Notes: generated by a model not told the origin, from the letters alone. Positions 19,134 through 63,125 are shown, counted from the first letter of the stretch. The stretch is 64,000 bases of DNA from Lachnospiraceae bacterium (GCA_015057505.1 SVEG01000008.1:8682-72681), one strand, 5' to 3'. A program made the numbers and translations.

Positions 19134-19157
19134 AATATATTCCCTCCACTTTACAGG

Positions 19158-20462: not shown

Positions 20463-20476
20463 AAAAGTCCCTCCAT

Positions 20477-22682: not shown

Positions 22683-22873
22683 TTCCGTATCCACCCCAAT
22701 AATTCCACGAAATTTTATCATTATGTTAACGTCCAAGAACCATTATATATGTATTTTTCAATAAAATCAAATGCTTTTTTCTTGATTTTTCGGCCTTTTC
22801 TGCTTGTTTACATAAAAAAATACAAGATGTCGATTATAGGCCAAATGTACCATACAACATCTTGTGAAAATTT

Positions 22874-46672: not shown

Positions 46673-49348
46673 TTACTTTGTACTGTAATATGATATTCCT
46701 ATAGATTCTATGCCCGAATTGCATGCGCTTGTAAAAGAAGCCTTTTGCATAATGACTCTCTCAAATGGAATACACTTCAGAACCTCTTCCTTTATCCATT
46801 CCTGCTGTTTTACACTACAGCCTACATGAGTAATAACGACAACATCAGCACTTATTTTTCGTTTATCTTTAAGATGCCAGTGTATTCCCTGTCTCCATGC
46901 GTGCTCTACACTTCCTCCGAGAAGTCCCACACAGACTGCTCTTCCCTGTTTCATTCTTACCATGGGATGCAACTTAAATATACTGCATGCCTTGGCCACA
47001 ACACCTCTCATACGACCACCGCGACTGAATATTTCCGCGCCCGGCAAAACAAATCTTGTCTGAATCCTTTTTTTGATTTTTTCAATAGAAGCAATAATTT
47101 CATCCGCATCCTTGCCCTCTGATGCAAGTCTTGCCGCATATAATGCAATAAGTCCCTGTCCGCATGATATTTGTCCCGAATCCACTATACGCACATGATC
47201 AAAGCCTTTCGCTGCAGCAACAGCCGTATTGTAACTGACCCCCGCATTGGCAGACAATGATATATGTATAACGCTTTCCGCCTGTATAAGTGTCTCAGCA
47301 AAGAAATCCTCATATTCTTCTATTGTAACGCCATCGGCATATGCCTTACTGCTTACAGAAGAAATATACTGTCCCAAACTATCAGAATCAATCTCTTTAG
47401 TATCGGCAAATCTACCATGCGGTGTTTTAACATACAAATACATAAGTCGCATATCATATTTATCAATCAGTTCAGCCGGAAGATCGCAGGTACAATCTGT
47501 AGTAATATATATCTTCCGGCGTTTTTTGCCGGAACGCTCCTGCATTCTGCCAAGCTCTGTTGTTTCCGTATATTCCGACTCCCTGTATTCCACAAGTTCC
47601 TCGGGCATAAATTTTAAAACCTCTGCCTCAAGTACCCTTCCCTTGATAGGCTTTTCAACGTATCCATCAAAACCGTGCTTAAAGAATTCTTCTCTTGCTT
47701 CTACCATCGCATTGGCAGTAACAACAATTACCGGTGTCTCCCTGCAAAGGCCGTTTTCCTGTACGCGAAGCTCCTTAAGAGTATCCACACCACTCATACC
47801 GGGCATAAGGTAATCCATTAAAATGACGTTATAGTACTTTTTCTTTGTCATTTCCAGACACTTACTGCCACTATTGGCAATATCCACCTGAACCTTGGTT
47901 CCCTGCAAAAGCCTGCTAAGCAAAAGTGAATTCATTGTATTGTCGTCAACAACAAGCACTCTGGCCTCAGGTGCTTCAAATAACGGCTTGTATTGTTCAC
48001 CGTCAAGTGCCTTCCTGTTGAAAAGATTAACTTCTCCTATCGGTGTTCTATCAACAATCTCCTGCTTAAACCTTACTGTAAATGTACTTCCCTTAGTATA
48101 TATACTATCTACTGTAATCTCTCCGTCAATCAAATCAACAAGGTGTTTGGTAATAGCAAGACCCAAGCCACTTCCGCCGATTCTTCTGTGCGCACTCTCG
48201 TCAGCTCTGTTGAAATAATCATAAATATGGCCTACATCTTCTTTACGAATTCCTATTCCCGTATCAGTAACCATAACGCTTAACATGATTTCATTTCCGC
48301 TACACTTTTCGCCATGCACGGACAAGGTAACAGAACCCTCCTCAGTGTATTTTACGGCATTATCAAGAATATTTAAAAATATCTGTTTTAAGCGTTTTTC
48401 ATCACCCAGCAATGAAGTAGGAAGATTTTTATCTATGTCAAGATAAAGCATAAGCTTTTTCTTTTCCATCCTTGCACGAATCATTTCCACTAAATCACCG
48501 AACAAATCCACCATCTTATATTCCAGCGGAAGAATTCGCATCATCTTCATCTCCATCTGCGACAAATCAAGGATATCATTAACCTGATTAAGAAGCATCG
48601 TACTTGCAAGCTGGATATCATGAGCGCATTCCTTAGTCTGTGCATCTGCATCTGAACGAAGAATCATCTCGTTAAGACCTATAATCGTATTAATGGGTGT
48701 TCTGATTTCGTGACTCATATTTGCAAAAAAAATGTTTTTTGCATTACTTGTCTGCTCAAGTTCTTCCTTTTGGCTGATATTAAGCTTGTGCTCTTCCTCA
48801 AAAGCAAGCAAATGTAACTTCAATATGATTCCGCCAACGAGCCCCGCAACAACAAGTGAAAAATACGAATCTATATAGATAGCCTTCTGCGACGGCATGG
48901 TTGCAACAGTCTCAGGAAAAACATAAGCCAAAATATACGTTGCCGCATAAGACAAAAGGCATATAGCCAGATAAAACCAAAGCTTTTTACCGGAAAACAT
49001 TACAAAAATATACATTATTCCCAAAGTCAACCATATCGAAGCTCCACTTACAGCTCCACCTTTTGCGTAGAATAATTCCGGGAACACTATAACAATAACA
49101 ACAATCCCCAAAAGTCCCGCAGCCAAATCATACTTATGATATTTAAATGCCGCAAACTGACATACTATCATCGTAATAAGCATCAGAATAATAAACGGAA
49201 GTATATCCTTTGCCGCATGCATAACCACAAATATCTCTACAATACCGACAATCGCTGCCAGACCGCCCACAAGAACAATCGTTCTAAGCATTCTTTCGCG
49301 AAGATCGCAATCCTCTCCGCGCACCAATCGGACTATTTTTTTCCACAT
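46673..49348 (-). CDS. Membrane hybrid histidine kinase - receiver - DegV domain fusion
   Basis: About six TM segments. HisKA (SHEIRTPINTIIG), HATPase (DTGIGI, GGSGLGLAI), REC (VLVVDDN...MDYLMPGMSG...VTANA...KP). The C-terminal 280 aa is colinear with the DegV family (YITTDCTCDLP..., HISLSANAGVSYNTA, IVDSGQISCGQG, SRGGRM). Confidence 0.85.
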   Translation of the reverse strand: MWKKIVRLVRGEDCDLRERMLRTIVLVGGLAAIVGIVEIFVVMHAAKDILPFIILMLITMIVCQFAAFKYHKYDLAAGLLGIVVIVIVFPELFYAKGGAVSGASIWLTLGIMYIFVMFSGKKLWFYLAICLLSYAATYILAYVFPETVATMPSQKAIYIDSYFSLVVAGLVGGIILKLHLLAFEEEHKLNISQKEELEQTSNAKNIFFANMSHEIRTPINTIIGLNEMILRSDADAQTKECAHDIQLASTMLLNQVNDILDLSQMEMKMMRILPLEYKMVDLFGDLVEMIRARMEKKKLMLYLDIDKNLPTSLLGDEKRLKQIFLNILDNAVKYTEEGSVTLSVHGEKCSGNEIMLSVMVTDTGIGIRKEDVGHIYDYFNRADESAHRRIGGSGLGLAITKHLVDLIDGEITVDSIYTKGSTFTVRFKQEIVDRTPIGEVNLFNRKALDGEQYKPLFEAPEARVLVVDDNTMNSLLLSRLLQGTKVQVDIANSGSKCLEMTKKKYYNVILMDYLMPGMSGVDTLKELRVQENGLCRETPVIVVTANAMVEAREEFFKHGFDGYVEKPIKGRVLEAEVLKFMPEELVEYRESEYTETTELGRMQERSGKKRRKIYITTDCTCDLPAELIDKYDMRLMYLYVKTPHGRFADTKEIDSDSLGQYISSVSSKAYADGVTIEEYEDFFAETLIQAESVIHISLSANAGVSYNTAVAAAKGFDHVRIVDSGQISCGQGLIALYAARLASEGKDADEIIASIEKIKKRIQTRFVLPGAEIFSRGGRMRGVVAKACSIFKLHPMVRMKQGRAVCVGLLGGSVEHAWRQGIHWHLKDKRKISADVVVITHVGCSVKQQEWIKEEVLKCIPFERVIMQKASFTSACNSGIESIGISYYSTK

Positions 49349-49351
49349 ACA

Positions 49352-52108
49352 CTATCTCTCCCTGCCTGACAGTTTATTCTTAATCCGTACCACATTCTCA
49401 ACCGCCGAAATATAATCCGACATTTCTATCTTCCTATATATCGGCTCAAGCAATTCCTTAAGTTCTTTTCCTCCGTACTGATACTTTTGGAGTTCCTTAA
49501 TATAGCCGGCAAGCTTTTCACCGTCCAACAAATACATTACCTGTTCCATCTCTGAAACAATTCTTTCAAATTCACTTTCCTCAAGCACAGGCAGCTTAGA
49601 CATTTCCTCCCGTCTGTCGCAGGTACTTTCTGCATTCGGATTTATGATTTTACTCTCACGAAGTTTCTCGAAGAAATCGTTATAAGCTTTCATAAAAGCT
49701 TCATGATTTTCCAAAATATATTCGATGAGTTCTTTTTTACCTGCCTGCTCAAGAAGTGCCGCGCGTTCCGATATTACATCAGCACCGATGCTTCTCATTG
49801 CCCCCTTTATTCCATGAACTGCTATCGTATAATTCTTCCAATCCTGTTTTTCAAAAGACTGCTCGGCAAATTTACCTATTTCATCACCATCTGCACAATA
49901 GCCCTTCAATACGTTAAAAAAGTTCTCTTCACCGTTACAATAAAAAATTCCCTTTGAGACATCTATTCCGAGTGCAGCAAACGATTCATCCTCCTTTGCG
50001 ACATTACCATCTTCTTTCTTACTGTCATCAATTTTATCCTCACCGCAAATAATTCTCTCCGGTATAATATGCCTTTTTAAAACTCTTTCAAGAACCGATC
50101 TTTCTATGGGCTTCTCCAAGAAATCATCAAAACCCTCGTTAATCATCATCTCTCTGGTTCCTGCAACTGCATTGGCCGTAAGTGCAATAATCGGCACTCT
50201 CTGATAATATGTGCCCGGTATTCTTCTGATACGGTGCATCGTCTCCACACCGTCCATTTCCGGCATCATATGATCCATAAATACAAAATCATAATCTGTC
50301 GCCATAATCTTCTCAAGAGCCTCTGCCCCACTCATTGCAGAAGTCACATTTATCTTATAATTAGAAAGAAGTCCCTCTATTACTCTGAGATTCATCCTAT
50401 TATCATCTACAACAAGAACATGCACACCTTTTGTTACAAATCGTCCTGACTTTTCATTTTTCATCTTACCCGGTGTGTCATAAAGACCGTTAAGTACTCT
50501 TACAATTGTCTGGATATAAAAAGGCTTAACAATCTTTAATATATTCTTGTTATCTACATCTTTTTCCTCAAAACGGTCAAGTATAACTACAAGCTTTGTC
50601 CTGTCGGACAACTCATCAAAATACTGTTTTTCAGCGCTGTATTCTGCCATACTGATGAAAACATGTGAAAAATCGTCAATCTTTTCTCTTCGCTGTAATT
50701 CTGCAAAATTCTTGCATATATGGCACTTTCCTCTAAGCTGGTCAACCATATTCATAATACTGTTGGAATATTCATCCCTGATTGCCACCATATCAAACTG
50801 TTCCATATCGATATATACGGCAACATTAACTTCTGCCTTATTATCAATTGCCGCTATGGGAGTTTCATCAAGTACCTTCTGCGGTACTACAAATTTGATT
50901 GTGGTTCCTCGTCCCGTTCTGCTCTTAACAGTTATAACACCACCCATTTTATGTACAAGAGCATGCGAAATTGCAAGTCCGAGTCCAAGACCACCCTCCT
51001 GGCGTTTTCTGCTGGCATCAACCTGATTGAAGCTTACAAACAACTGCTCAAGTCCGCTTTCATCCATACCGATTCCTGAATCCTTAACAGAAACCATAAG
51101 GTTTATTCCATAAGCTTCTTTTCTGTAACCTACTGAAATACTTACAAAACCAGAATCTGTAAACTTGATGGCATTGTCCACAAAATTCATTATTACTCTT
51201 CTGATTTTCTTCTCATCACCTTGCAATACGCTCGGAAGAGTTGCATCACAGTCTACAATAAGTTCTAGCTGCTTATCATTTTTTCTTGCGGTAGCCATAT
51301 TAATAACATCATTTATGGTTGAAGTAATGTTATACGCCTCTTCCTCAAGTGCAATATTCCCCGACTGCAATTCGGAAAAGTCCAAAATATCACTTACCGC
51401 CGTCGTAAGATTACGTCCCGCAAGCTGAATATTTACTATATCTTCTCTTATATGAGCCGGCAAATCTTCCTTCAAAATTATCTCACTGATTCCGCATATA
51501 GTATTAATCGGCGTTCTGATTTCATGATTTACATTCGCAAGAAAATCATCTTTCCTGTTTTCTACTTCTTTTAATTCTTCAATTGCTCTCAAAAGACTTT
51601 TACTACCGTCACTGTTTCTTTTTACCCATACATACATTACATATTCAAGCAAAAACAAATTACCGATTTGTGATAAAAACAACAAAATATCATCCGTCGT
51701 AGCAAGCGGTACGTCCTTAAGAATAAAACCATGTACAAAAAAAATTATCACAGTTGAAAATACAGTGTAATAGATAACCGTACTTTCTCCATACAATCCT
51801 ACAAACACAACAAATGCCGCAAATACAGGAAGTACCAATGAAATCCCATCCGAACAAAGAGTATATACTACGACTCCCATCTGCATAATCGCAACAGATA
51901 CCTTGACTCTGAACAAATAATCTCTGCATTTGCTTACACATATAAGCCATGCAAAAAAAAGACCTGCTATCAACACATACTGAACCCAGCTGTCCCAGCC
52001 ACGTCTTACGGCTGCCATAATCATATAAATCGCATATATCGAATATATGAACATCAGGAAAACCTCTGTTTTTCTTCTGTTGTCATTATCGTAAATAAGT
52101 TTTTCCAT
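49352..52108 (-). CDS. Membrane hybrid histidine kinase with pseudo-receiver, receiver and Hpt domains
   Basis: Multi-TM N-terminus. NHEIRTPINTICG, DSGIGM, GGLGLGLAI. REC (VLVVDDNRMN..MDHMMPEMDG..LTANA). Hpt (IAVHGIKGAMRSIG). ATG at 52108 after GGAGG. Confidence 0.88.
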   Translation of the reverse strand: MEKLIYDNDNRRKTEVFLMFIYSIYAIYMIMAAVRRGWDSWVQYVLIAGLFFAWLICVSKCRDYLFRVKVSVAIMQMGVVVYTLCSDGISLVLPVFAAFVVFVGLYGESTVIYYTVFSTVIIFFVHGFILKDVPLATTDDILLFLSQIGNLFLLEYVMYVWVKRNSDGSKSLLRAIEELKEVENRKDDFLANVNHEIRTPINTICGISEIILKEDLPAHIREDIVNIQLAGRNLTTAVSDILDFSELQSGNIALEEEAYNITSTINDVINMATARKNDKQLELIVDCDATLPSVLQGDEKKIRRVIMNFVDNAIKFTDSGFVSISVGYRKEAYGINLMVSVKDSGIGMDESGLEQLFVSFNQVDASRKRQEGGLGLGLAISHALVHKMGGVITVKSRTGRGTTIKFVVPQKVLDETPIAAIDNKAEVNVAVYIDMEQFDMVAIRDEYSNSIMNMVDQLRGKCHICKNFAELQRREKIDDFSHVFISMAEYSAEKQYFDELSDRTKLVVILDRFEEKDVDNKNILKIVKPFYIQTIVRVLNGLYDTPGKMKNEKSGRFVTKGVHVLVVDDNRMNLRVIEGLLSNYKINVTSAMSGAEALEKIMATDYDFVFMDHMMPEMDGVETMHRIRRIPGTYYQRVPIIALTANAVAGTREMMINEGFDDFLEKPIERSVLERVLKRHIIPERIICGEDKIDDSKKEDGNVAKEDESFAALGIDVSKGIFYCNGEENFFNVLKGYCADGDEIGKFAEQSFEKQDWKNYTIAVHGIKGAMRSIGADVISERAALLEQAGKKELIEYILENHEAFMKAYNDFFEKLRESKIINPNAESTCDRREEMSKLPVLEESEFERIVSEMEQVMYLLDGEKLAGYIKELQKYQYGGKELKELLEPIYRKIEMSDYISAVENVVRIKNKLSGRER

Positions 52109-52133
52109 ACAAAAAACCTCCTGCCATTTGCAT

Positions 52134-52167
52134 AAAAAGCATACCGGGGGCAAACCGGTATGCTTTT
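52134..52167 (-). terminator. Intrinsic (bidirectional) terminator after the MCP gene
   Basis: GCATACCGG tttgcc CCCGGTATGC flanked by A and T runs. Confidence 0.75.
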
Positions 52168-52179
52168 TGTTTATATCCC

Positions 52180-53448
52180 TTAAAGAGTTTCTTCTTTCTC
52201 AAGCTTAAACATTGAAATAAGATTACTTACTCTTGCTGCCTGATTTGTAAGTTCAACGCTTGCTGCCGCACACTCTTCACTTGTTGCTGAGTTAGTCTGT
52301 ACAACCTGTGACACCTGCTCAACAGCCTGATCAATCTGTGCTATTGCACTTGCCTGATAATTTGATGCCTCAGCAATTTCCGTAATGAGTTTTTCACTCT
52401 GTTCAACAGCCTTTGTAATCTCTTCCAGAGCCTTTGCAGTTTCGCCTGCAATTATACCGCCGGAAACAACCTTACGAATAGAATCCTCTATCATCTCTTC
52501 TGTCTCAGATGCAGCCGAAGCACTCTTTGCCGCAAGATTTCTTACTTCATCAGCTACAACCGCAAAACCTTTACCTGCTTCTCCCGCTCTTGCCGCTTCA
52601 ACTGCAGCGTTAAGTGCAAGAATATTAGTCTGGAATGCAATATCATCAATAACTTTTATAATCTTGGAAATTCTCTCGGATGAATTATTGATATCATCCA
52701 TCGCAACGATCATCTCCTGCATTTCCTTATTACCTTCTTTTACTGTTTCAATTGCTTTGCCAACCAAATCAGCGGCCGCATTAGCCTGTATGGCGTTATT
52801 TCTTGTTTTCTCTGCAACATCCACAATAGATGCCGTAATCTGCTGAATTGCACTTGCCTGCTCTGTAGAGCCTTCTGCCAAAGCTTCGCTGGCATTGGAA
52901 ACCTGACTTGCACCTACAGAAACCTGATGTGCAGCATCTTTTACATTACTAATAGCATTGCTGTTACGCTCCACCAATAATTTAAGAGCATTACCTAATG
53001 TATCATCCTCTGACTTAGGCTCAACAACCACTGTCATATCACCGTCTGCAACTTCCTGTACAACCTTTGCCTGTTCATCAATATTATCAACGATTGCCTG
53101 AATATCATTGATAAGCTTTCCAAATTCATTGCTACCCATTTTCTTAAGAGTAATATCTGTTTTACCCAACGCCAATGCACTTGATGCCTTATTAATCTCA
53201 GCAAAAGCTTTTTTGATTGTACCGAGTAGTGTAATTGCAATTCCGCTTGTACAAATTATCATAAGAATAAAGAAAAGTGCCGTTGTATATGCATATTTAC
53301 TTAAATAAGCTTCCGGATCTGCCACTATAAGCATTTTACTTGCCGACTTATAGCCAACATACAAAGACATAATCATTACTATATCAATTACAATAAAGCC
53401 AATTAACAACTGCGTTGTTATTTTCATACTTTTTGAAACAATTTTCAT
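52180..53448 (-). CDS. Methyl-accepting chemotaxis protein with minimal extracytoplasmic loop
   Basis: Two TM segments about 25 aa apart, HAMP, and the conserved signalling hairpin ([37 protein letters not shown]). Confidence 0.92.
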
Positions 53449-53454
53449 AACCTT

Positions 53455-53955
53455 TTATTCTCCTTCTTCTGCATTCTCTTCATTTGTCTGCTCTGCAACG
53501 GATAAATCTTCATCCTTAAGCAATTTGTCCGGATCAAGTAACAATTTGACACTGTCTCCGACCTTACCGATACCATACACATATCTGCTCTGTGTCTTAT
53601 CTTCGTTGCCGAGTGTCGGAGGGTCTAAAATATCCTCCTGAGTAATCTTTACAACCTCAGCCACTTTGTCAACTATAAGTCCCGCTACCGTTCCCTTTAC
53701 ATTAACAATAACAATGCAAGTTCTGTCCGTATATTCCTTTGGCTCCTGCTTGAAGCGGATTCTTACATCCATTACCGGTATAATTTTACCTCTAAGGTTA
53801 ATCAAACCTTTTATGTAATCTTCGCTCTCGGGGATCTGAGTTATTTCCTGATATACAATAATCTCATTCACATATTTAATCTCAAGTGCAAAACACTCAT
53901 TTCCCGAATAAAAGGTTACATATGTATCCTGCTGTGTTTCTGCCTGCACGCTCAT
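53455..53955 (-). CDS. cheW: Chemotaxis coupling protein CheW
   Basis: 166 aa with CheW-like pattern (GLINLRGKIIPVMDVR). Confidence 0.9.
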   Translation of the reverse strand: MSVQAETQQDTYVTFYSGNECFALEIKYVNEIIVYQEITQIPESEDYIKGLINLRGKIIPVMDVRIRFKQEPKEYTDRTCIVIVNVKGTVAGLIVDKVAEVVKITQEDILDPPTLGNEDKTQSRYVYGIGKVGDSVKLLLDPDKLLKDEDLSVAEQTNEENAEEGE

Positions 53956-53976
53956 ATATACCTTTTCCTTTCTGTT

Positions 53977-56130
53977 TTATGATTTGTATTCCACAAGTCC
54001 GTTTGCATCCAAAATAAGAGCAATGCTTCCGTCTCCAAGCTGCGTACAGCCTGATAGACCTTTTATCTTCTTGATATATTCGGGAATCGGTTTTACAACG
54101 ATTTCCTGCTTGCCCACAAGTTCATCCACAAAAAGACATAATTTCTTATCTTCCACGCTAACTACAATCAACATGCCTTCCTCGGCTTCCGGATTATATC
54201 CGTCAATCTGATAAAGCTCTCCGACACGAACTACCGGATATGCTTCCCCTCGTATCATAACGAACTCTTCTCCGCCCGGATTCTTAATAAAGACATCCTC
54301 TTTAACTCCGATAAACTCCTGCACTGCATTTGTCTCAATAACAAATGAGGATTTACCGACAGACATTACAATTCCGTCAATTATCGCAAGCGTAAGCGGT
54401 ATCTTCATAATCATGGCACTTCCCTGACCGGGAGTACTTTCTATCTCAAGTGTTCCGCCGATTGCTTTGATATTGGACACTACAACATCCATGCCTACGC
54501 CACGTCCCGAATATTCCGTAACCTGTTCTTTGGTAGAAAAACCGGGAAGCGTAATAAACTGGTATACTTCCTTATCCGTATACGCACTGTCAGGCTTGTA
54601 ATAATCAAGAAGTCCCTGCTTTCTTGCCTTGGCAATAATAGCATCCCGATTAAGACCTTTGCCGTTATCCTGCACACTAATCCAAACCTTACCGGACTCT
54701 GTCTTGGCCTTTAATGTAACCTTACCCTTCTCGGTCTTACCCTTTGCCGCACGTTCATCAGGCATCTCTATTCCGTGGTCAACAGAATTCCTTACAAGAT
54801 GCATAAGCGGGTCTGCTATATGCTCTATTACATTCTTATCAACCTCGGTCGTGTCTCCAATCATCTCAAATTCAATATCCTTACCAAGCTTTCTTGATAC
54901 ATCAAACACAATACGATTCATCTTCTGGAACGTATTCGTGAGTGCCATCATTCGCATACTCATGATTGCATTCTGAAGCTCCGTGGATATCTTTGACATC
55001 TGTCTTGCTGACTTATTAAAATTCTCAAGTGAAAGTCCCGGGACCTTAAGATCCGAGCTCTGAAGCACCATGGATTCCGCTATAACAAGCTCTCCGATCA
55101 AATCCATAAGTACATCCATCTTTTGAACATCAACACTGATAAATGTAGCTTTTTCCTGCTTTTTAGGCTTATCCTTTGCAAGCTTCTTGCCCTTACCGAC
55201 TTCCTTAGACTCAATGACAAAATCACCGGGAGCCATAGGTTTTTGCGCCTGTTTTTGGATAATCGCCTGTTCTTCCGGTGTTTTTTCAGTCTGATTACCT
55301 TCCGGCTGTTCGCCTGCAATTCTTATCTCCGTACCAAAACTGTCAAATCCCTTCTGGAACTCACTTGCGCTACACTCGTAAATATCAACCTTTTGAAGTT
55401 CATAACCTACTTGGATGAGCTCATGAAGCTTGTCCTCACTGCATTGAGCCTGTAATAAAATCTTAAAACCGTTGTCTAAGATTTCTTTCTCACTGTTCAC
55501 ATCCGAAACAATGTCTTCCGGATAATGAAGCAAATCCTCGGCAATTTCCTTAAGTGAATATACAATCTTATATGCATGTATATTCGCAAGCTGAACATCA
55601 GGATTAAAAGTCAGATAAATCTTAAAGAAATGACTTGCACTTGTTGCCATTGGCGCAATATAAAATTGCTGCGGTGCAACATACACATTCTCCTTGATAT
55701 TCTTTTCCTGCTCACCGTCACCGCTCTTTATCTTTGTCAGGAATGCATCAACTGCTGCAACAATCTCACCCGCATCACCATCAGGTGTTCCGCCGTCCTG
55801 AATCTTCATCATCTCAGACGTAATAAAATCAGCTACCTGCAAAACATGCTCAACAAGTTCAAGATGAGGCACATTTGTTGGTTTAGACTCCCTGAGATAA
55901 TAAAATACATCTTCAAGCTTATGTGATGCCTTTGTGATTTCGTCAAACATCATAACTCCCGAAGAGCCCTTTATCGTATGCATCGTACGGAATATCTCGT
56001 TAATAGCATCCTCATCAAAACACTCTTCGTCCTTCTGTTCCAGCACAATGTCCTGAAGCCTTTCAAGCAGCTGACTGTTTTCAAACAGGTATACGTCAAG
56101 CATTCCCTGCATATCAAAATCTCCTGCCAT
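53977..56130 (-). CDS. cheA: Chemotaxis histidine kinase CheA
   Basis: P1 Hpt (FRTMHTIKGSSG), HATPase (HLVRNSVDHGIE, GRGVGMDVV), C-terminal CheW-like P5 domain. Confidence 0.93.
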   Translation of the reverse strand: MAGDFDMQGMLDVYLFENSQLLERLQDIVLEQKDEECFDEDAINEIFRTMHTIKGSSGVMMFDEITKASHKLEDVFYYLRESKPTNVPHLELVEHVLQVADFITSEMMKIQDGGTPDGDAGEIVAAVDAFLTKIKSGDGEQEKNIKENVYVAPQQFYIAPMATSASHFFKIYLTFNPDVQLANIHAYKIVYSLKEIAEDLLHYPEDIVSDVNSEKEILDNGFKILLQAQCSEDKLHELIQVGYELQKVDIYECSASEFQKGFDSFGTEIRIAGEQPEGNQTEKTPEEQAIIQKQAQKPMAPGDFVIESKEVGKGKKLAKDKPKKQEKATFISVDVQKMDVLMDLIGELVIAESMVLQSSDLKVPGLSLENFNKSARQMSKISTELQNAIMSMRMMALTNTFQKMNRIVFDVSRKLGKDIEFEMIGDTTEVDKNVIEHIADPLMHLVRNSVDHGIEMPDERAAKGKTEKGKVTLKAKTESGKVWISVQDNGKGLNRDAIIAKARKQGLLDYYKPDSAYTDKEVYQFITLPGFSTKEQVTEYSGRGVGMDVVVSNIKAIGGTLEIESTPGQGSAMIMKIPLTLAIIDGIVMSVGKSSFVIETNAVQEFIGVKEDVFIKNPGGEEFVMIRGEAYPVVRVGELYQIDGYNPEAEEGMLIVVSVEDKKLCLFVDELVGKQEIVVKPIPEYIKKIKGLSGCTQLGDGSIALILDANGLVEYKS

Positions 56131-56145
56131 TTATTGCTCCTTTCT

Positions 56146-56538
56146 CTATACCAGACCGAATTTTTTTAATGCCTGTTCAAATCTTTCCTGGTCAATAGGC
56201 TTGCCCGAATAAACCGTACATCCGAGTTCAAATGCCATCTTGACATTTTGTTCATCATTAAGTGCTGTGGTCATAATCACCTTGACCGCTTTCTCCTGCG
56301 GAATATTACGTTCCTTCTCCAAATTACGAATACCCACAAGTGCCTGATATCCGTCCATAACCGGCATCATGATATCAAGACATACAAGGTCATACGGCTC
56401 GTCATCCTCAAGTGCCATCATAAACGCATCCACTGCTTCCATTCCGTCCACAGTGACATCACACTCACCATATTTTGATAAAAACCCCGCCATAAATTTT
56501 CTCGTTACAAAATCATCTTCTGCTAATAAAATCTTCAT
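56146..56538 (-). CDS. cheY: CheY-like single-domain response regulator
   Basis: 130 aa REC (ILLAEDD...CLDIMMPVMDG...TTA...KP). Confidence 0.85.
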   Translation of the reverse strand: MKILLAEDDFVTRKFMAGFLSKYGECDVTVDGMEAVDAFMMALEDDEPYDLVCLDIMMPVMDGYQALVGIRNLEKERNIPQEKAVKVIMTTALNDEQNVKMAFELGCTVYSGKPIDQERFEQALKKFGLV

Positions 56539-56558
56539 AAGTCTTTCCTCTCCACCAT

Positions 56559-57587
56559 CTACATTTTACTTAATATCGCATATGTCCGTTTAGCAACATC
56601 GGACAATTTTTCCTGGAACTCCACTGCACCGGCATCATATGCCACCTTCGGCATACCGTATACAACACAAGTCGATTCATCCTGTCCGATAGTCCTTGCT
56701 CCTGCCTTCTTCATGGTCAGAAGCCCTTTGGCTCCATCTCCTCCCATACCTGTTAATATAATACCTATTGCTTTATCTTTAGCTACTTCAGCAACCGAAG
56801 TAAATAAAACATCTACTGACGGTATATGCCCGCTGACTCTTTCACCTTTTTTAATAACAACCTGCATAACACCATTCACATTAACAAGTTGCATGTGAGC
56901 ATCACCTGCAGGAGCAAGAAGTGCCTGTCCCGGTATCACAATATCACCGTTTTTTGCCTCTTTTACCCTGATTTTACAACGCTTATCGAGTCTCTGAGCA
57001 TACATATCCGTAAATCCGGGAGGCATGTGCTGAACCATGACAATTCCAGGAATCTCCGTCCCAAATTCATTAAGTACCGCCGCAATCGCTTCCGGACCTC
57101 CTGTGGAAGCTCCAATGGCAATTACGACTTCTTTTGCCTTACCTGTAAGCGACTGCTTTGCAAACTCTATAACATTACGCTTAATTCTGCCTACTTTTGC
57201 AACAGAAGCAATTTTAATCTTTATCGGAAGTTCATTTTTAACAAATGCTTCAAGCTGTGCTACCCCTACACCAACGGGTTTCGCCACAAAATCAACAGCA
57301 CCCGCATTAAGTGCATCAAATACCCTGTTACTTAAAGTACTTATAACTATTACGGGAAGCGGATGCTGTGGCATAAGCATTTTCAAAAACTCAATACCAT
57401 CCATCTTTGGCAATTCTATATCTAAAGTCATGACATCCGGCTGATATTTTAGAATTGCATCCCTTGCTTCAAAAGGATCCTTTGCCAGAGCCACTACCTC
57501 AATCAATGGATCCTCACTCAAGCCCTGCACCAAAAGCTTCCCAAATACCATTGAATCTTCAACAACCAAAACTTTTATTCGTCGCAT
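56559..57587 (-). CDS. cheB: Protein-glutamate methylesterase CheB
   Basis: REC plus methylesterase domain (IAIGASTGGPEA, VQHMPPGFT, GMGGDGA). The ATG at 57587 is preferred over the track start at 57605. Confidence 0.9.
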   Translation of the reverse strand: MRRIKVLVVEDSMVFGKLLVQGLSEDPLIEVVALAKDPFEARDAILKYQPDVMTLDIELPKMDGIEFLKMLMPQHPLPVIVISTLSNRVFDALNAGAVDFVAKPVGVGVAQLEAFVKNELPIKIKIASVAKVGRIKRNVIEFAKQSLTGKAKEVVIAIGASTGGPEAIAAVLNEFGTEIPGIVMVQHMPPGFTDMYAQRLDKRCKIRVKEAKNGDIVIPGQALLAPAGDAHMQLVNVNGVMQVVIKKGERVSGHIPSVDVLFTSVAEVAKDKAIGIILTGMGGDGAKGLLTMKKAGARTIGQDESTCVVYGMPKVAYDAGAVEFQEKLSDVAKRTYAILSKM

Positions 57588-57620
57588 GTACTTTCGTCCT
57601 TCCATCTTAAAAGTTGTTGT

Positions 57621-58694
57621 TTAACGAAGCTGTTTTACTATCTTTTTCATAATTGAAAATATATCCGGATTAAATTTTTTACCGGAATCCATCTCCATAA
57701 TCTTCATTGCATCTTCCATACCAAACGCGGCTCTGTACGTTCTGTCCGAAGTCAACGCACAATACGCACCTGCCACGGCAACAATCTGCGCCGAAATAGG
57801 AATCTCATCTGCTTTTTTGCCTTCCGGATAACCGCTTCCGTCCCAGTTCTCATGATGATAATTGGCTATTTCCATAGACATATTAACGAAACTGTTGTAA
57901 TTGCCGAGTTCCGCAACATCCTTCATTATTCTCGCACCTATAACAGTATGCTTCTGCATAGCAGCACTTTCTTCTTCTGTTAAACTACCTTTTTTCTGCA
58001 ATATATCCGTAGGAACTGCAAGGTTTCCCAAATCACAAAGCGGTGCGGCAAGTTCTATCATATCAATATAGTTGTCAGAAATTACCGAACCGTACTTGGA
58101 CGACAGTTGCATCGCCTCTGCCAACATCCTACTGTTATAGCAAAGTCTCTCCATATATTCTTCATCATAATTGGCATTCTCTCTGGCGACACGAATAAGT
58201 GCATACAAAACACTTTTTCTTACCGCCTCCATCTGCTTCATCTGCTCACTGATTGATATCTGAAGCTGGCGGTTTGATTCAGCCATACTTCTGTTAGACT
58301 CATATAAGCGAAGATGCATCCCGACTCTTGCCTTTACAACCTCCGGAATAAAAGGTTTGGTAACATAATCGGCACCTCCGAATTCAAAGCCCTTTACAAT
58401 ATCTTCAGCATCATCATATGCCGAAATAAAAATAATCGGGATATCTCTAAGTTCTGCATCCTCCTTTATCTTCTTACACACTTCATAACCGTCCATTTCA
58501 GGCATCGCTATATCAAGAATTATCAGGTGTGGTTTTATATACTGCATCATCTTTAAGGCCTGCATACCATTCTCGGTAAGCACAGGCTGATAACCCATGT
58601 CCTCTATTATACCGCGCAAAACAAATCTGTTTGCTTCCACATCATCTACAATTAAAATACGAGAGACATCCTTGTAAGCACTGCTGTCTGCCAT
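57621..58694 (-). CDS. Response regulator with HD-GYP domain (c-di-GMP phosphodiesterase type)
   Basis: REC (ILIVDDVEANR..ILDIAMPEMDG) followed by HD-GYP (HHENWDGSGYPEG). Confidence 0.9.
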   Translation of the reverse strand: MADSSAYKDVSRILIVDDVEANRFVLRGIIEDMGYQPVLTENGMQALKMMQYIKPHLIILDIAMPEMDGYEVCKKIKEDAELRDIPIIFISAYDDAEDIVKGFEFGGADYVTKPFIPEVVKARVGMHLRLYESNRSMAESNRQLQISISEQMKQMEAVRKSVLYALIRVARENANYDEEYMERLCYNSRMLAEAMQLSSKYGSVISDNYIDMIELAAPLCDLGNLAVPTDILQKKGSLTEEESAAMQKHTVIGARIMKDVAELGNYNSFVNMSMEIANYHHENWDGSGYPEGKKADEIPISAQIVAVAGAYCALTSDRTYRAAFGMEDAMKIMEMDSGKKFNPDIFSIMKKIVKQLR

Positions 58695-58705
58695 ATGTAC
58701 CTCCA

Positions 58706-60160
58706 CTATATCTGTTGCAACGAGTTTTTAAATAATTCAAAAGCTGCAACCGCTTTCTCATAGTCCCCTTTTTGCACTGCCATCTTAAGTCTTAATGCAG
58801 CACTTTTTATCTCCCTCGGTGCTTCCTCTGCCAGCTCTTTTATTGATTCAGCAAACATTTCAGCTTTTTCCCAGTTGTCCATCTCCATACTAAGAATAAG
58901 CTTTGTCAGCTTCTTTTCCAATTCTTCAAGATTTGCCGGCTCCCCAAATATCTTTATCCCGTCCCCCGAATCATTGTTCATCAGGTTTTGTAATTTATTA
59001 ATAATGGTCTGACGTTCATCCGGTTCCGTGACATATTCCTTTAATCCGTCATGTAATTCCCTTCCTTGTATCAGATAATCTTCTTCAGGGATCTCAACCC
59101 AAATATTAAAAGAAAATACCGTCCCTTTACCGACTTCGCTGTTGACATGAATTCCTCCACCCATAAGTTCAACAAGTTCCTTGCAAATACTAAGCCCCAG
59201 TCCCGTACCTCCGTACTTTCTGGATATGGATGCATCCACCTGTGAAAAACTTTTAAAAAGCTTATCCTGATCAGCCTTGGCTATGCCAATTCCGGTATCT
59301 ATTACAACAAAAAACAGTTCTGTCTTGGCGTCCATCTGCGCCGTCTTTACAATTTCAACATGTATCTCTCCCACCGAAGTAAATTTATATGCATTGGATA
59401 TCATATTATTCAGTATCTGAACAATTCTAAGCTCATCTCCAACAACAAACTTCGGTACTTCGGGCGAAACCGTTATCGAAAACTCCAACCCTTTTTCCGT
59501 AATTCTGTTAATATGATTACTCTTAACATAATCAATCATATTACGAAATTCAAATTTGCGTTCCTCCAAAATAAACTTGCCCGCTTCCAATTTGGAAAAA
59601 TCAAGGATATTGTTAATAATTGCATTCATATCCCTACAGCCACGCTCCACAAGTGCCAGTAGTTTTAATTTATCTTCATCTGATTCACGACTTATAAGTT
59701 CTCTAGTATTACCGAGTATTCCGTTAACGGGTGTTCTAAGTTCATGCGTTACATTAGCAACAAATTCCGACTTAACCTTAAGGGCTTCCTTAGCTTCCTG
59801 TTCCGCCAAAACGAGTTTCTTCTCCAGCGAAATTCTTTTTGAGGTATCACGCGCAACACATATATATTGCATATCATACTCAAGAACCTTCACTCTCGTC
59901 TGAAAACACGTCTTATTCTTACGGTAAGCCATGCTATCATATATTTCACCAAGTGTAACATCTGAATCTTTAATGCGGACACCTTTGGAGAAAAGTCCGG
60001 GATAAACATCCGAAACCAAAGTTCCGCACAAATCTTCCTCGAATTCCGTAAGTTCCTTAGCCCTTTTATTGGCATAAACAATCATCCCGAAATCATTAAA
60101 AACCATTATCATCTCCAGAGAATTGTCTGCAGCAAATTGAAACAAATTAGCTAGTTCCAT
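58706..60160 (-). CDS. Cytoplasmic PAS histidine kinase with C-terminal His-less Hpt-like bundle
   Basis: PAS-like N-terminus. HisKA (THELRTPVNGILG). HATPase (DTGIGI, GGTGLGLSI). The C-terminal 90 aa aligns to the Hpt domains of neighbouring kinases. Confidence 0.88.
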   Translation of the reverse strand: MELANLFQFAADNSLEMIMVFNDFGMIVYANKRAKELTEFEEDLCGTLVSDVYPGLFSKGVRIKDSDVTLGEIYDSMAYRKNKTCFQTRVKVLEYDMQYICVARDTSKRISLEKKLVLAEQEAKEALKVKSEFVANVTHELRTPVNGILGNTRELISRESDEDKLKLLALVERGCRDMNAIINNILDFSKLEAGKFILEERKFEFRNMIDYVKSNHINRITEKGLEFSITVSPEVPKFVVGDELRIVQILNNMISNAYKFTSVGEIHVEIVKTAQMDAKTELFFVVIDTGIGIAKADQDKLFKSFSQVDASISRKYGGTGLGLSICKELVELMGGGIHVNSEVGKGTVFSFNIWVEIPEEDYLIQGRELHDGLKEYVTEPDERQTIINKLQNLMNNDSGDGIKIFGEPANLEELEKKLTKLILSMEMDNWEKAEMFAESIKELAEEAPREIKSAALRLKMAVQKGDYEKAVAAFELFKNSLQQI

Positions 60161-60293
60161 GTTTTTCCCTCCAAAACACCCATGTTAAAATTATATAAAA
60201 TTTACCGCGAATTTACAAGATGTTTTTAATAAAATAGTAGTATTTTCTTATTTTTACTCATTTTTCGTAACATTTTGCAAATATTTAGAATAG

Positions 60294-60356
60294 CAAAAAA
60301 AAAGATGTTTTTTTTCGTGCTACAAATAGATTGCGACGCAAAAAAACATCTTTTTT
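60294..60356 (-). terminator. A/T-rich hairpin terminator after the 919-aa kinase gene
   Basis: AAAGATGTTTTTTT...AAAAAAACATCTTT with flanking T and A runs. Confidence 0.55.
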
Positions 60357-60365
60357 TAATTATTC

Positions 60366-63125
60366 CTATAATTTTTCTATTTTATCCACCAGTTTATCAA
60401 GCACTTCTATATAAACCGGATATTCTTTTAAAATAAATTCCTTATTACACTCTTTACCGGCAAACTCGTGTTTCTTGGACAGAGCCGAGAACTCAACTGC
60501 TCCTATATTAAGTGCATTTCCTTTAAGCGCATGTGCAACAATTGCATATTGCTCCCAATCTTCTTTTTCAAAAAACATTTCAAGCTGTGGCATATATTCT
60601 CTTACCTGCTCACAAAAAGCCTGCAACATATCTTTATATAGGTCTTCTGATTCCATGCAATATGAAAGACCTGTTTCCCTGTTAATGTCAAGAAGTTCTT
60701 TAGGCCATGCCAAAGCAAACTCATCCTTTCTATTTTGTTCTCCATCCATATGCACAAGATTTCTCGGAAGATACTGTAAAAGCAGTGCATCCAACTTGTC
60801 AGCCTGAATGGGCTTAGAAACATAATCATTAAATCCAAATCCGAGGTACATCTCCTTGCAACCTGCAATTGCATTGGCAGTCAGGGCAATAACCTTCGTT
60901 TCCTTATTCGGATTATCCGAATCCGAACGCAACATATTAAGTGTCTCGATACCATCAAGTTCAGGCATCATATGATCCATTAAGATAATGTTATAAAGTT
61001 TGGTTCTCGTCAATTCCAAACATTCTCTTCCACTTGATGCAAGATCTACATTAATCTGCGTACGTTTTAATAGATTTTTCATCAACGAGAGATTCATCGA
61101 ATTATCATCGACAACAAGTATATTGGCATTCGGTGCCGTAAACAATTTATCTAAAGACTTCATCGCCTTTCTTCTCTGCTTAAGAGATGTCTCAAAATTA
61201 CCTATAGGCTCTTCGTCAACAACTTTCTGCGGAATCGACACAGTAAAAGTACTTCCCTTACCATATTCACTGTCAACGGCAACATCTCCTCCCATCAAAT
61301 CTGTCAGTTTCTTTACTATATTAAGCCCAAGTCCCGTACCTTCGACATTTCGGTTTCTTTCAACTTCAAGACGCATAAAACTGTCGAACAGCCTTGACAA
61401 ATCCTCTTTCTTAATACCCATACCTGTATCAATTATCGAAAAACATAATGCTATTTTTTCGTCATCAATCCAGTTGTAAAATACTCTTATTGTAATATTT
61501 CCTTCTTTTGTGTATTTAACAGCGTTGGAAATAAGGTTGGTAAGAATCTGTTTAATACGAAGCTCATCTCCGTAAAGTCTTACAGGAATTCCCGGATCCA
61601 CAACCATTTTAGTCGCAATGGTTTTACCCTTCGCTCTTGCATTAAGCATAAGCATCTCATCTTTAAGAAGCGACGCAAGATCGTATGTATCCTCTACAAG
61701 TTCCAACTGTCCCGACTCGATTTTGGAAAAATCAAGAACATCATTTACAAGTCCGAGAAGCATATTACTTGCATTCTGAATGTTATGCGCATAATCCTTA
61801 ATGGACTCCTTCTCTGCCTCTCTTAAAATCATCTCATTCATACCCACAACAACATTGATAGGAGTACGAATCTCATGTGACATATTGGCAAGGAATTGTG
61901 CCTGCGCCTCCTTAGCCATAACGGCCTTCTGCTTAGCACGTTCCGTTCTCGCCAAATCCTGTCCCGTCTTAATAATAGCCATAACAAGCAGGAACAACAA
62001 ACCGATTGCCAGCACTGTACCTAGAGACAGGCTTGTTCCGATATAATACAAAATAATTTCAAGAATGGCCGTAAACAATAATCCGTAAATACCGATACCT
62101 ACCGCCACATAATCTTTAATCCTTTTTTTAAAGACGTCAACAGTTATCGTTCCTATAAGGACAGCAAGCGAAACAAATGTACTCGCATGAATAAACGGAA
62201 GTTGTGTTACAAATTGTACCACATCAAACACCTGTAATATCGTACCAACAACAAAAATCCCCATAGAATAAGCCATAGGAATACTGTACAGCTTAGCATA
62301 ACGGCCGTCCTGTATTTCATTCATATAAGACAGCAACGGTATGGAAATTATCATCAATGACCAATATGTGTAGTTGGTCAACACTGATACGTTCCTAAAC
62401 AGAATCTGTCTGAATTCAATCTCTGACAACATCCATAATGCACAGAAAAATATCGTCCATGCAAGATATCTGAGCGGCAGGTTCTTCTTATAAACATACT
62501 TAAGAATTGCACACACAACAATACAAAACAAACTCATCAACATAAGGAATACAGCTATTCCGGTTCTGAGTCCTGCTTCTCTTACAAGATTAATCAATAT
62601 CGCGGTTCTGTTTCCCCGTCTTACCATTCGCGTTGCACCGGCATATTTTGAATCACTTGAAAACTTATATGTAAGTTCCTTACCTGCATCGGACTCATCA
62701 AGTTCAAGAAAAATATAACGAAAAGCACTATTCGTACCATATAATCTTGAATCCTTAGTGTTATAGCTCTCTCTCAAAACACCGTCAATATATATATCAA
62801 CATCCTGCCAAACCGAACGGAAACACAGGCACTCTCCAGAATACACGTCTGCCGGCAATACAGTCACAAAGGTAACAACTTCTCCTCTCTCAGCTTCAAC
62901 CTTACCCGGGACTTCAACAGGAACCTTCTCACCGTTATCCTTAAGCTGATACCACTGCGCATCAAACTCCATATAATCCGAAGAAACCGCATCACGCTCA
63001 TCCGGCAACAGGTATTGTCCGCCTATAAAAAATACAAACATTAAAAAGGCAATAACGCAAAAATACGTCCAACTGCCCTTCATATATTTTGAAAGTATAT
63101 GGTTCTTTTTTTCTTCAGTCATCAT
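60366..63125 (-). CDS. 7TM-receptor-type hybrid histidine kinase (extracellular domain, 7TM, HisKA-HATPase-REC-Hpt)
   Basis: N-terminal TM plus about 170-aa extracytoplasmic domain plus about 7 TM. SHEIRTPINVVVG, DTGMGI, GTGLGLNI. REC (ILVVDDNSMN..MDHMMPELDG..LTANA). Hpt (IVAHALKGNALNIG). Confidence 0.9.
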   Translation of the reverse strand: MMTEEKKNHILSKYMKGSWTYFCVIAFLMFVFFIGGQYLLPDERDAVSSDYMEFDAQWYQLKDNGEKVPVEVPGKVEAERGEVVTFVTVLPADVYSGECLCFRSVWQDVDIYIDGVLRESYNTKDSRLYGTNSAFRYIFLELDESDAGKELTYKFSSDSKYAGATRMVRRGNRTAILINLVREAGLRTGIAVFLMLMSLFCIVVCAILKYVYKKNLPLRYLAWTIFFCALWMLSEIEFRQILFRNVSVLTNYTYWSLMIISIPLLSYMNEIQDGRYAKLYSIPMAYSMGIFVVGTILQVFDVVQFVTQLPFIHASTFVSLAVLIGTITVDVFKKRIKDYVAVGIGIYGLLFTAILEIILYYIGTSLSLGTVLAIGLLFLLVMAIIKTGQDLARTERAKQKAVMAKEAQAQFLANMSHEIRTPINVVVGMNEMILREAEKESIKDYAHNIQNASNMLLGLVNDVLDFSKIESGQLELVEDTYDLASLLKDEMLMLNARAKGKTIATKMVVDPGIPVRLYGDELRIKQILTNLISNAVKYTKEGNITIRVFYNWIDDEKIALCFSIIDTGMGIKKEDLSRLFDSFMRLEVERNRNVEGTGLGLNIVKKLTDLMGGDVAVDSEYGKGSTFTVSIPQKVVDEEPIGNFETSLKQRRKAMKSLDKLFTAPNANILVVDDNSMNLSLMKNLLKRTQINVDLASSGRECLELTRTKLYNIILMDHMMPELDGIETLNMLRSDSDNPNKETKVIALTANAIAGCKEMYLGFGFNDYVSKPIQADKLDALLLQYLPRNLVHMDGEQNRKDEFALAWPKELLDINRETGLSYCMESEDLYKDMLQAFCEQVREYMPQLEMFFEKEDWEQYAIVAHALKGNALNIGAVEFSALSKKHEFAGKECNKEFILKEYPVYIEVLDKLVDKIEKL

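Follow-up and report, generated by a model that had tools for sequence, protein, structure and literature searches.

A conserved chemosensory-type cluster of gut Lachnospiraceae with a non-canonical HD-GYP regulator and apparent recurrent loss of cheR

What does a set of chemotaxis genes do when it stands apart from flagellar genes, encodes CheB without CheR and is joined in one operon to a kinase and an HD-GYP regulator? The question is raised by a 16-kb signalling region in a 64-kb stretch of DNA from Lachnospiraceae bacterium (64,000 nucleotides (nt), GCA_015057505.1 SVEG01000008.1:8682-72681; hereafter the window, in whose positions the cluster's coordinates are given), for which a preliminary description had proposed a chemosensory-like pathway with a cyclic di-GMP (c-di-GMP) phosphodiesterase-type output. 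We find that the locus is the local copy of a chemosensory-type cluster conserved across gut Lachnospiraceae. With somewhat more confidence than doubt, we read it as an E. coli-like second Che cluster in which a degenerate HD-GYP protein would serve as a phosphorylation-controlled adaptor or sensor and from which cheR has been deleted, leaving adaptation one-way or lost.

A conserved cluster and its chemosensory core

Domains were assigned by a Pfam scan of the open reading frames (ORFs) of the window, and family cut-offs were those of NCBIfam. All cluster genes lie on the minus strand; the ORF listing and Pfam verified all ten minus-strand genes named in the preliminary description, together with their order and domains. 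The core methyl-accepting chemotaxis protein (MCP), CheA and CheW of a Che system are present, within the following unit (REC, receiver domain; Hpt, histidine phosphotransfer domain; HK, histidine kinase):

60295-60357, minus strand: terminator-like A/U-rich hairpin followed by a U-run, after the upstream kinase gene HK1 (sequence and fold)
60190-60218, minus strand: promoter-like site TTGTAA-17-TATAAT ahead of the PAS-HK operon (consensus scan, 10/12 matches; a consensus match only)
58706-60160, minus strand: PAS-HK, cytoplasmic PAS histidine kinase (Pfam PAS_8, HisKA, HATPase)
57621-58694, minus strand: REC-HD-GYP response regulator (Pfam Response_reg and HD_5/HD)
57588-57620, minus strand: 33-nt spacer, the cheR deletion junction (cheR at the same position in relatives)
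56559-57587, minus strand: CheB methylesterase/deamidase (Pfam REC and CheB_methylest)
56146-56538, minus strand: small single-domain receiver ('CheY'; Pfam REC only)
53977-56130, minus strand: CheA (Pfam Hpt (P1), P2, dimerisation (P3), HATPase (P4), CheW (P5))
53455-53955, minus strand: CheW (Pfam CheW)
52180-53448, minus strand: MCP (Pfam HAMP, weak, and MCPsignal)
52130-52168, minus strand: intrinsic terminator after mcp (14-bp stem, 7-nt loop, UUUUU)

The che genes are spaced by 6-21 nt within the block from the PAS-HK gene to mcp, as had been described, and the longest ORF of the REC-HD-GYP gene, which starts at GTG 58706, overlaps the PAS-HK stop by the 1 nt that underlies the overlap reported earlier. 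Both terminators were borne out by sequence reading and folding—an 18-bp A/U-rich stem after HK1 (-26.2 kcal/mol, z = -4.75, 0/200 shuffles equally stable) and the hairpin after mcp (-23.3 kcal/mol, z = -2.5)—and a consensus terminator scan picked up neither of these two intergenic terminators. The Che core, the PAS kinase and the REC-HD-GYP regulator form one terminator-bounded unit, the linkage of which is conserved in approximately 75 species.

Relatives were collected through a CheA scan with one genome per species (384 found, of which the best 80 were used; their loci carry L-numbers, for example, L005, and lineages were grouped by identity-based clustering of CheA). Nearly all of these 80 are labelled Lachnospiraceae—Acetatifactor (including A. 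muris DSM 23669), Roseburia, Agathobacter and Butyribacter—and a few bear bin labels such as Clostridia, Alistipes and Muribaculum. The order PAS-HK, REC-HD-GYP, (cheR), cheB, cheY, cheA, cheW, mcp is kept in approximately 75 species-level loci, with CheA identities down to 67%; throughout these loci, PAS-HK lies directly upstream of the REC-HD-GYP gene and the pair is never split from the che genes. Phospho-acceptor motifs are all conserved across orthologs, including the P1 His of CheA and the REC site of the REC-HD-GYP protein, and the phospho-His motif of PAS-HK, FVANVTHELRTPVN, is conserved at no less than 90% per column across 70 orthologs. PAS-HK has no transmembrane (TM) segment according to a TM scan. 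Its C-terminal approximately 120 amino acids (aa; 58706-59080) extend the protein beyond the ATPase domain as a conserved helical segment, in which the motif LRLKMAVQK occupies the spot of the Hpt H-x-x-K-G motif without a conserved His; the extension matches no Pfam family, relaxed scan included, and is possibly a degenerate Hpt-like domain. Literature searches found no description of this cluster or of HD-GYP outputs of Che systems. In one metagenome-assembled genome (L076, 10001-18800), cheA-cheW-mcp appears to be duplicated in tandem, the two copies being separated by a copy of cheY; this is either real or an assembly artefact.

The preliminary description had asked for the heptad class of the core. 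Alignment scores place receptor, CheW and CheA with the E. coli-like 36-heptad (36H, Tsr-type) kind and not with the 44-heptad (44H) flagellar type of Firmicutes, a class reading that is based on relative similarity to E. coli versus T. maritima proteins. The MCP aligns without gaps to E. coli Tsr over the signalling domain (from approximately residue 145 on; Tsr approximately 246-521; E = 2e-50, 175 bits) versus 77 bits (1e-20) for the T. maritima receptors, and its best NCBIfam matches are Aer2, Tcp, Tap, Tar and Tsr. Likewise, CheW scores 98 bits against its E. coli counterpart versus 47 bits against that of T. maritima, and CheA 336 versus 288 bits. The receptor has two TM segments, an outer loop of approximately 24 aa, a HAMP domain and no ligand-binding domain.

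These features set the cluster apart from an ordinary motility locus. Neither cheR nor any flagellar gene occurs in the Pfam-annotated gene calls that cover approximately 2993-64000 of the window and 10 kb upstream (taken from the same metagenomic contig, ENA ERZ27248446 k141_509798, 142 kb); the earlier remark that no flagellar genes lie nearby is upheld, and the reservation that cheR and flagellar genes might lie just outside the window found nothing to sustain it in the 10 kb upstream. According to Neville et al., in Roseburia, E. rectale and E. eligens the main flagellar locus includes cheBAWCD along with a cheY-like gene, next to pilZ and fliA (PMC3720852). A genome labelled R. hominis (L054) carries the present cluster in a non-flagellar context, flanked by purine genes and, at the opposite end, by genes for a class II aminoacyl-tRNA synthetase and amino-acid transporters. 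Literature searches on Acetatifactor motility returned nothing directly relevant. The cluster is a second chemosensory system, of the 36-heptad kind, apart from the flagellar che genes of related genera.

Substitutions in the HD-GYP domain

The c-di-GMP phosphodiesterase-type output assigned to this locus in the preliminary description has become doubtful, given the residues of the HD-GYP domain itself. Alignment to PmGH (4MCW) and PA4781 (4R8Z) gave the following correspondences between PmGH and the window protein:

H189 of PmGH: Y180
H221 of PmGH (the His of HD): C220
K225 of PmGH: N224
KPG of PmGH: KKG
HHER of PmGH: HHEN
D305 of PmGH: G309
D308 of PmGH: C312
D222, H250, H276/H277, Glu, DGxGYP and RxY[K/R] of PmGH: retained

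The window protein keeps D221, H249, H280-H281-E282, HHENWDGSGYP and the nucleotide-binding motif RxYR, and its REC domain is intact. Column counts over 75 orthologs show Cys at the HD His position in 66 and His in none, Asn as at N224 in 70 and Cys as at C312 in 69; the D305 position is occupied by Ser or Gly, only 3 orthologs having Asp, and D-G-x-G-Y-P is conserved in 74-75. The HD-GYP metal-binding set (H189, H221-D222, H250, H276-H277 and D305 in PmGH) is incomplete, with H189, H221 and D305 replaced in essentially all 75 orthologs. The survey of Galperin and Chou, in which the metal ligands of the HD-GYP family are set out, describes how the inactive RpfG-family protein HnoD, and Xanthomonas RpfG, regulate through protein–protein contacts (10.1101/2021.11.05.467447).

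Intact paralogs are found at some of the same loci. Loci of the A. muris group have a canonical REC-HD-GYP gene directly upstream of the PAS kinase, the product of which retains every motif (ETGEH, HDIGK, KPG, HHERWDGxGYP and ADVYDAL); in A. muris itself (L082, DSM 23669), genes for a divergent PocR-GGDEF-HD-GYP protein and a canonical REC-HD-GYP protein stand upstream of the cluster (2150-5073). With every motif preserved in paralogs at these loci, the changes in the cluster's own regulator are best read as a fixed functional shift. In clustering at 50%, its ortholog group forms essentially one full-length cluster plus fragments; YN-GYP and CN-GYP variants are among the nearest clusters, with canonical proteins coming next, and a homolog search returned only close orthologs annotated 'response regulator'. 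This 'CD-GYP' protein is probably a fixed non-canonical, non-hydrolytic variant, and the two conserved Cys residues at former ligand positions may constitute an altered metal or redox site.

We consider it unlikely that the protein is instead an active, phosphorylation-triggered phosphodiesterase through which the Che core lowers c-di-GMP, in the manner of Wsp with the opposite sign. The REC-HD-GYP architecture and the retained HHE, DGSGYP and RxYR would fit such an enzyme, as would the PocR-GGDEF-HD-GYP and canonical REC-HD-GYP genes near the A. muris cluster, and a c-di-GMP phosphodiesterase regulator family gives the best NCBIfam match, although its 134 bits fall short of the cutoff of 400. 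Some HD-GYP proteins that are one ligand short do hydrolyse c-di-GMP (10.1101/2021.11.05.467447); here, three metal ligands and the Lys after HD are gone from essentially every ortholog, the complete set persists in same-locus paralogs, and HnoD, ECA3548 and PA2572, with comparable changes, are reported to be inactive (10.1101/2021.11.05.467447; PMC3411652).

cheR and its functional partners

The absence of CheR alongside CheB, which the preliminary description presented as a trait of the system, is correct for the window (no CheR in its entire length by tblastn with the CheR of a relative) and does not extend to the family. Most relatives' loci have approximately 850 nt more than the window between the HD-GYP gene and cheB, and the extra gene encodes a protein of 273-274 aa (about 825 nt) that is CheR by Pfam (E = 1e-55). 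The junction is spanned by 74 loci. In 66 of them cheR stands between the HD-GYP and cheB genes, and seven, like the window, are without it; the remaining one, L069 (uncultured Lachnobacterium sp., approximately 7504-9600), is the reciprocal case, with cheR after the HD-GYP gene in a cluster without cheB.

At least six separate groups can be distinguished among the cheR-less loci (window and L005; L018; L032; L034; L050 and L072; L061). The closest CheA neighbours of every group carry cheR, and the deletion junction sequences differ among the groups. For the Agathobacter spp. pair L061 and L051, the CheA proteins of which are 95% identical, L051 has cheR and L061 does not; the L061 junction is a clean excision that joins the ribosome-binding region of cheR to the start codon of cheB, indicating a very recent event. 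Because cheR sits at this position in 66/74 loci and has been lost independently, its absence is, on comparative sequence grounds, a recurrent secondary loss—a lineage-specific deletion from an ancestral cluster—and not a design feature.

The losses have a counterpart in the remaining proteins. We scored columns that were at least 97% conserved in cheR-bearing loci and altered in three or more cheR-less lineages. Such parallel changes hit both functional partners of CheR and nothing else in the cluster: two columns in CheB, two in the MCP and none in PAS-HK, REC-HD-GYP, CheY, CheA or CheW. Among random groups of six cheR-bearing sequences, none reached two such columns in CheB or in the MCP (0/300; mean 0.01-0.03, at most 1). 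In CheB, T165, the Thr after GASTGG, is invariant in cheR-bearing loci (66/66) and has become Pro in three cheR-less lineages and Val in one, the window protein carrying T165P beside this nucleophile motif; N252 has become Ser in three lineages. The catalytic Ser/His/Asp motifs are intact and CheB scores above its NCBIfam cutoff. In the MCP, Q192 (64/64 in cheR-bearing loci) is Glu in four cheR-less lineages and T367 is Ser or Val in three.

Aligned to Q297, E304 and E493 of Tsr, the predicted modification sites of the MCP are E196, Q203 and E392, which puts Q192 four residues (one helical turn) before the first predicted methylation site. The second site (residues 202-203, approximately 52840-52845) reads QQ only in the window and L005, and EE or EQ in the other 73 orthologs. 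Glutamine mimics methyl-glutamate, and QQ at this predicted site may compensate for the loss of cheR in the lineage of the window and L005. The scored changes are confined to the two partners of CheR, and the adaptation module therefore appears to be self-contained; this suggests that the loss is a functional one rather than one made good by another cheR in the genome.

Flanking kinases and the predicted flow of signals

Beyond the terminator-bounded unit, the following genes flank the cluster:

60366-63122, minus strand: HK1, membrane hybrid histidine kinase (Pfam HisKA-HATPase-REC-Hpt)
49352-52108, minus strand: HK2, membrane hybrid histidine kinase with C-terminal Hpt (Pfam HisKA-HATPase-REC-Hpt)
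46673-49348, minus strand: HK-REC-DegV fusion (Pfam HisKA-HATPase-REC-DegV), 3 nt after HK2
46336-46608, minus strand: 90-aa ORF (no Pfam domain)
44561-46339, minus strand: argS, arginyl-tRNA synthetase (Pfam)

HK1, the called start of which lies one codon after that of the longest ORF, has a promoter-like site and terminator separate from those of the core and an ortholog in only four relatives' loci (L005, L012, L016 and L057); it is a lineage-specific accessory outside the conserved core. Its earlier designation as '7TM' holds as far as hydropathy goes (one TM segment, a loop of approximately 150 aa, then approximately 6-7 TM segments), and no Pfam sensor family matches. HK2 is assigned the start ATG 52108, behind GGAGG, because the mcp terminator lies inside its longest ORF, the TTG start of which would traverse that terminator. 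Relaxed Pfam scans of the N-termini of HK1, HK2 and HK-REC-DegV, the HK2 linker and the 90-aa ORF gave nothing above noise and did not confirm a 7TM/7TMR-DISM sensor family for the kinases. The three hybrid kinases are paralogs, since their receivers are 40-47% identical to each other. HK2 and the HK-REC-DegV fusion, itself a membrane hybrid kinase, follow mcp in 54 loci and are absent from the A. muris group; the phospho-sites and Hpt His of HK2 are conserved in 57 orthologs. The DegV domain of the fusion exceeds the NCBIfam DegV cutoff and has solved-structure matches to DegV/FakB fatty-acid-binding proteins; no description of this architecture was found in the literature searched.

An Hpt domain, stand-alone or within a hybrid kinase, accompanies the cluster at every locus examined. 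HK1 and HK2 contain one with a conserved His, and HK-REC-DegV has none. A stand-alone Hpt is found beside the cluster in L050, L063, L065, L072, L074, L078, L081, L082 and L084; in loci without HK2 it bears the motif AH[A/S/T][L/I]KG and lies right after mcp or just upstream, and some of these loci have a further canonical REC-HD-GYP gene and kinase gene downstream. In A. muris, a 120-aa stand-alone Hpt (L082, 14111-14473) directly follows mcp in place of HK2 and HK-REC-DegV. Because this protein shows no significant similarity to HK2, the link between Hpt and the cluster is one of domain presence and not of orthology. Such recurrence suggests a multi-step relay that ends on HD-GYP-type regulators.

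The wider surroundings are of mixed character. Upstream of the cluster are genes for an alpha-amylase, a LytTR protein, a deacetylase, a serpin, an ECF sigma factor and sugar-acid enzymes; the ECF-type sigma factor gene is followed by that of the serpin (477 aa) 7-9 kb upstream of the window end (L002, 3369-5352), and bacterial serpins are uncommon. According to the Pfam gene calls, a Tad/type IV pilus-like locus lies approximately 30 kb from the che cluster (15232-21691, minus strand), with genes for a T2SSE ATPase (15232-16293), a T2SSF platform protein (18075-19133), a DUF4860 protein, several small unannotated ORFs and a BTAD/Trans_reg_C regulator (20477-21691), and with an adjoining tyrosine integrase gene (approximately 21807-22736); it possibly encodes a non-flagellar surface organelle. 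At approximately 20354-20480, upstream of the T2SSF gene, the window shows an apparent difference of approximately 108 nt from the matching contig (L004) near the 5′ end of a 398-aa gene, and flanking gene coordinates are offset accordingly.

In the mechanism that we propose, the receptor would probably sense membrane or cytoplasmic state, not a periplasmic ligand, and would control CheA, which is predicted to phosphorylate the small receiver and CheB. The PAS kinase, possibly joined by the Che branch through an Hpt, is predicted to phosphorylate the REC domain of the HD-GYP-like protein; candidate relay Hpt domains are those of HK2 or HK1 in the window and the stand-alone proteins in relatives. 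The HD-GYP-like protein would most likely act on partner c-di-GMP enzymes, modulating them as an adaptor or nucleotide sensor, with hydrolysis of its own less likely, by analogy with the interaction-based precedents HnoD and Xanthomonas RpfG (10.1101/2021.11.05.467447) and PA2572 (PMC3411652). Without CheR, CheB would only deamidate or act as a phosphate sink, leaving adaptation one-way or lost. More speculatively, and with a good deal more doubt than trust, the whole may be pictured as an E. coli-type array with a non-flagellar His-Asp-His-Asp relay from CheA through the small receiver and an Hpt to the REC-'CD-GYP' protein: the latter a non-hydrolytic, Cys-substituted adaptor on c-di-GMP enzymes, gated by phosphorylation and possibly by redox state or metal, with DegV-fused (fatty-acid-sensing) and other hybrid kinases feeding in, the methylation arm repeatedly discarded and CheB and the receptor convergently retuned.

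Several points weigh against the adaptor mechanism. Cysteine can ligate iron or zinc, and with the ligands D221, H249, H280 and H281 still in place, residual or altered catalysis is possible; the Lysobacter RpfG is still active without the 'key' His (10.1101/2021.11.05.467447). The small receiver, at approximately 25-31% identity to every other cluster receiver, is no closer to those of the hybrid kinases than to the rest, so the case for an Hpt relay comes down to gene neighbourhood and solved-structure matches. The cluster is also present in motile genera, where an input to the flagellar motor is possible.

That last point leads to another account, to which we give little credence: the Che core would be an extra input to the flagellar motor, with the small receiver binding FliM, and the PAS-kinase/REC-HD-GYP pair would be independent and merely co-transcribed. 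Occurrence in motile Roseburia and Agathobacter fits this account, as do the P2 domain of CheA and the role of E. coli-type 36H systems in driving enterobacterial flagella. The small receiver is the most conserved cluster protein (83-95% identity in most other-species loci), as expected if it docks on a conserved machine, but its top solved-structure matches are SLN1 and hybrid-kinase receivers, above any CheY, and it reaches no CheY family cutoff in NCBIfam. Moreover, there is no CheZ, CheC or CheX phosphatase, the one dedicated receptor is devoid of a ligand-binding domain, the flagellar locus of relatives already has a full cheBAWCD (PMC3720852), and the kinase/REC-HD-GYP pair is never apart from the che genes in approximately 75 loci. 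The idea that unrelated signalling genes have come together by chance in the 16-kb supercluster and have no joint function, to which the rarity of HK1, the absence of HK2 and HK-REC-DegV from the A. muris group and the division by terminators into three transcription units might lend themselves, is highly improbable and for the core largely refuted, given an eight-gene core that is syntenic in approximately 75 species, the 54 loci in which HK2 and HK-REC-DegV follow it, and the Hpt protein or further REC-HD-GYP/kinase genes that flank the cluster where both are missing.

Read as a Che core coupled to a degenerate HD-GYP adaptor, the cluster finds partial counterparts among known systems. In PA2571-PA2572-PA2573 of P. 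aeruginosa, a kinase, a degenerate HD-GYP regulator and a methyl-accepting receptor are likewise encoded together; PA2572, a REC-YN-GYP protein the gene of which lies between those of the kinase and an orphan MCP, is inactive and signals by interaction, and its REC domain is needed for MCP binding (PMC3411652). Unlike the present cluster, that module has no CheA, CheW, CheB or CheY of its own and its substitution is YN, not CD; PA2572 was compared with the window regulator at the level of domain families. In the HnoK/HnoB/HnoD module of Shewanella and Vibrio, HnoK phosphorylates the non-hydrolytic HnoD, which modulates an active phosphodiesterase regulator (10.1101/2021.11.05.467447). Loci of the A. 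muris group resemble this arrangement in that a canonical REC-HD-GYP gene neighbours that of the degenerate protein, but there is no H-NOX sensor here, and in the gene calls the window cluster has no canonical HD-GYP, EAL or GGDEF protein nearby. By analogy, the cluster would seem to work most like PA2571-73 and HnoK/B/D modules joined to a 36H Che core.

The two precedents invoked in the preliminary description proved more distant. HK1 and HK2 share the architecture of RpfC (membrane sensor, HisKA, HATPase, REC, Hpt), and the regulator is REC-HD-GYP like RpfG; Xanthomonas RpfG also lacks a key His, shows low activity and works via partners (10.1101/2021.11.05.467447). The suggested RpfC/RpfG pairing is not supported, however: the invariably adjacent kinase is the soluble, non-hybrid PAS kinase, HK1 is not conserved, the regulator lies within a che operon, and the Pfam-annotated neighbours include no rpfF-like or enoyl-CoA-hydratase-type gene (same span of gene calls as above). 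Wsp of Pseudomonas, of the ACF class, is a Che core linked to c-di-GMP, with a dedicated receptor the external domain of which is dispensable (PMC8846402), and like the present cluster it is not encoded with flagellar genes. The likeness ends there: Wsp has a REC-GGDEF cyclase output, a CheA-REC hybrid, two CheW-like proteins and CheR, whereas the cluster has a CheA without REC, one CheW, a degenerate HD-GYP-like protein and a Tsr-like 36H receptor, with no GGDEF protein in the gene calls. Wsp shares only a general idea with the cluster, and RpfC/RpfG only domain architectures.

Among chemosensory classes, the 36-heptad F7 systems (including P. aeruginosa Che2 and S. oneidensis Che1) resemble the cluster, the receptor of which aligns to Tsr and has Aer2 as best family match, and outputs that are unknown or other than chemotaxis are on record for several non-enterobacterial F7 systems (PMC9855816). 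The cluster differs from them in its Firmicute host, in having neither CheZ nor CheD and in the kinase/REC-HD-GYP pair inside the operon. The features that define Firmicute flagellar (F1-type) che systems—flagellar neighbours, CheC/CheD and 44-heptad receptors—are not those of the cluster.

Roseburia, Agathobacter and their relatives are abundant flagellated gut butyrate producers, and to our knowledge, how they sense their surroundings is almost wholly uncharacterised. The repeated clean excision of cheR amounts to a natural experiment on what becomes of a chemosensory array after methylation is removed; it singles out the Thr after GASTGG in CheB and Q192 in the MCP, and the 36-heptad receptor may be directly testable in E. 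coli arrays. For the family, the cluster represents a conserved hub—with a degenerate HD-GYP protein, Hpt proteins and often a fatty-acid-binding kinase fusion—that may govern switching between swimming and attachment.

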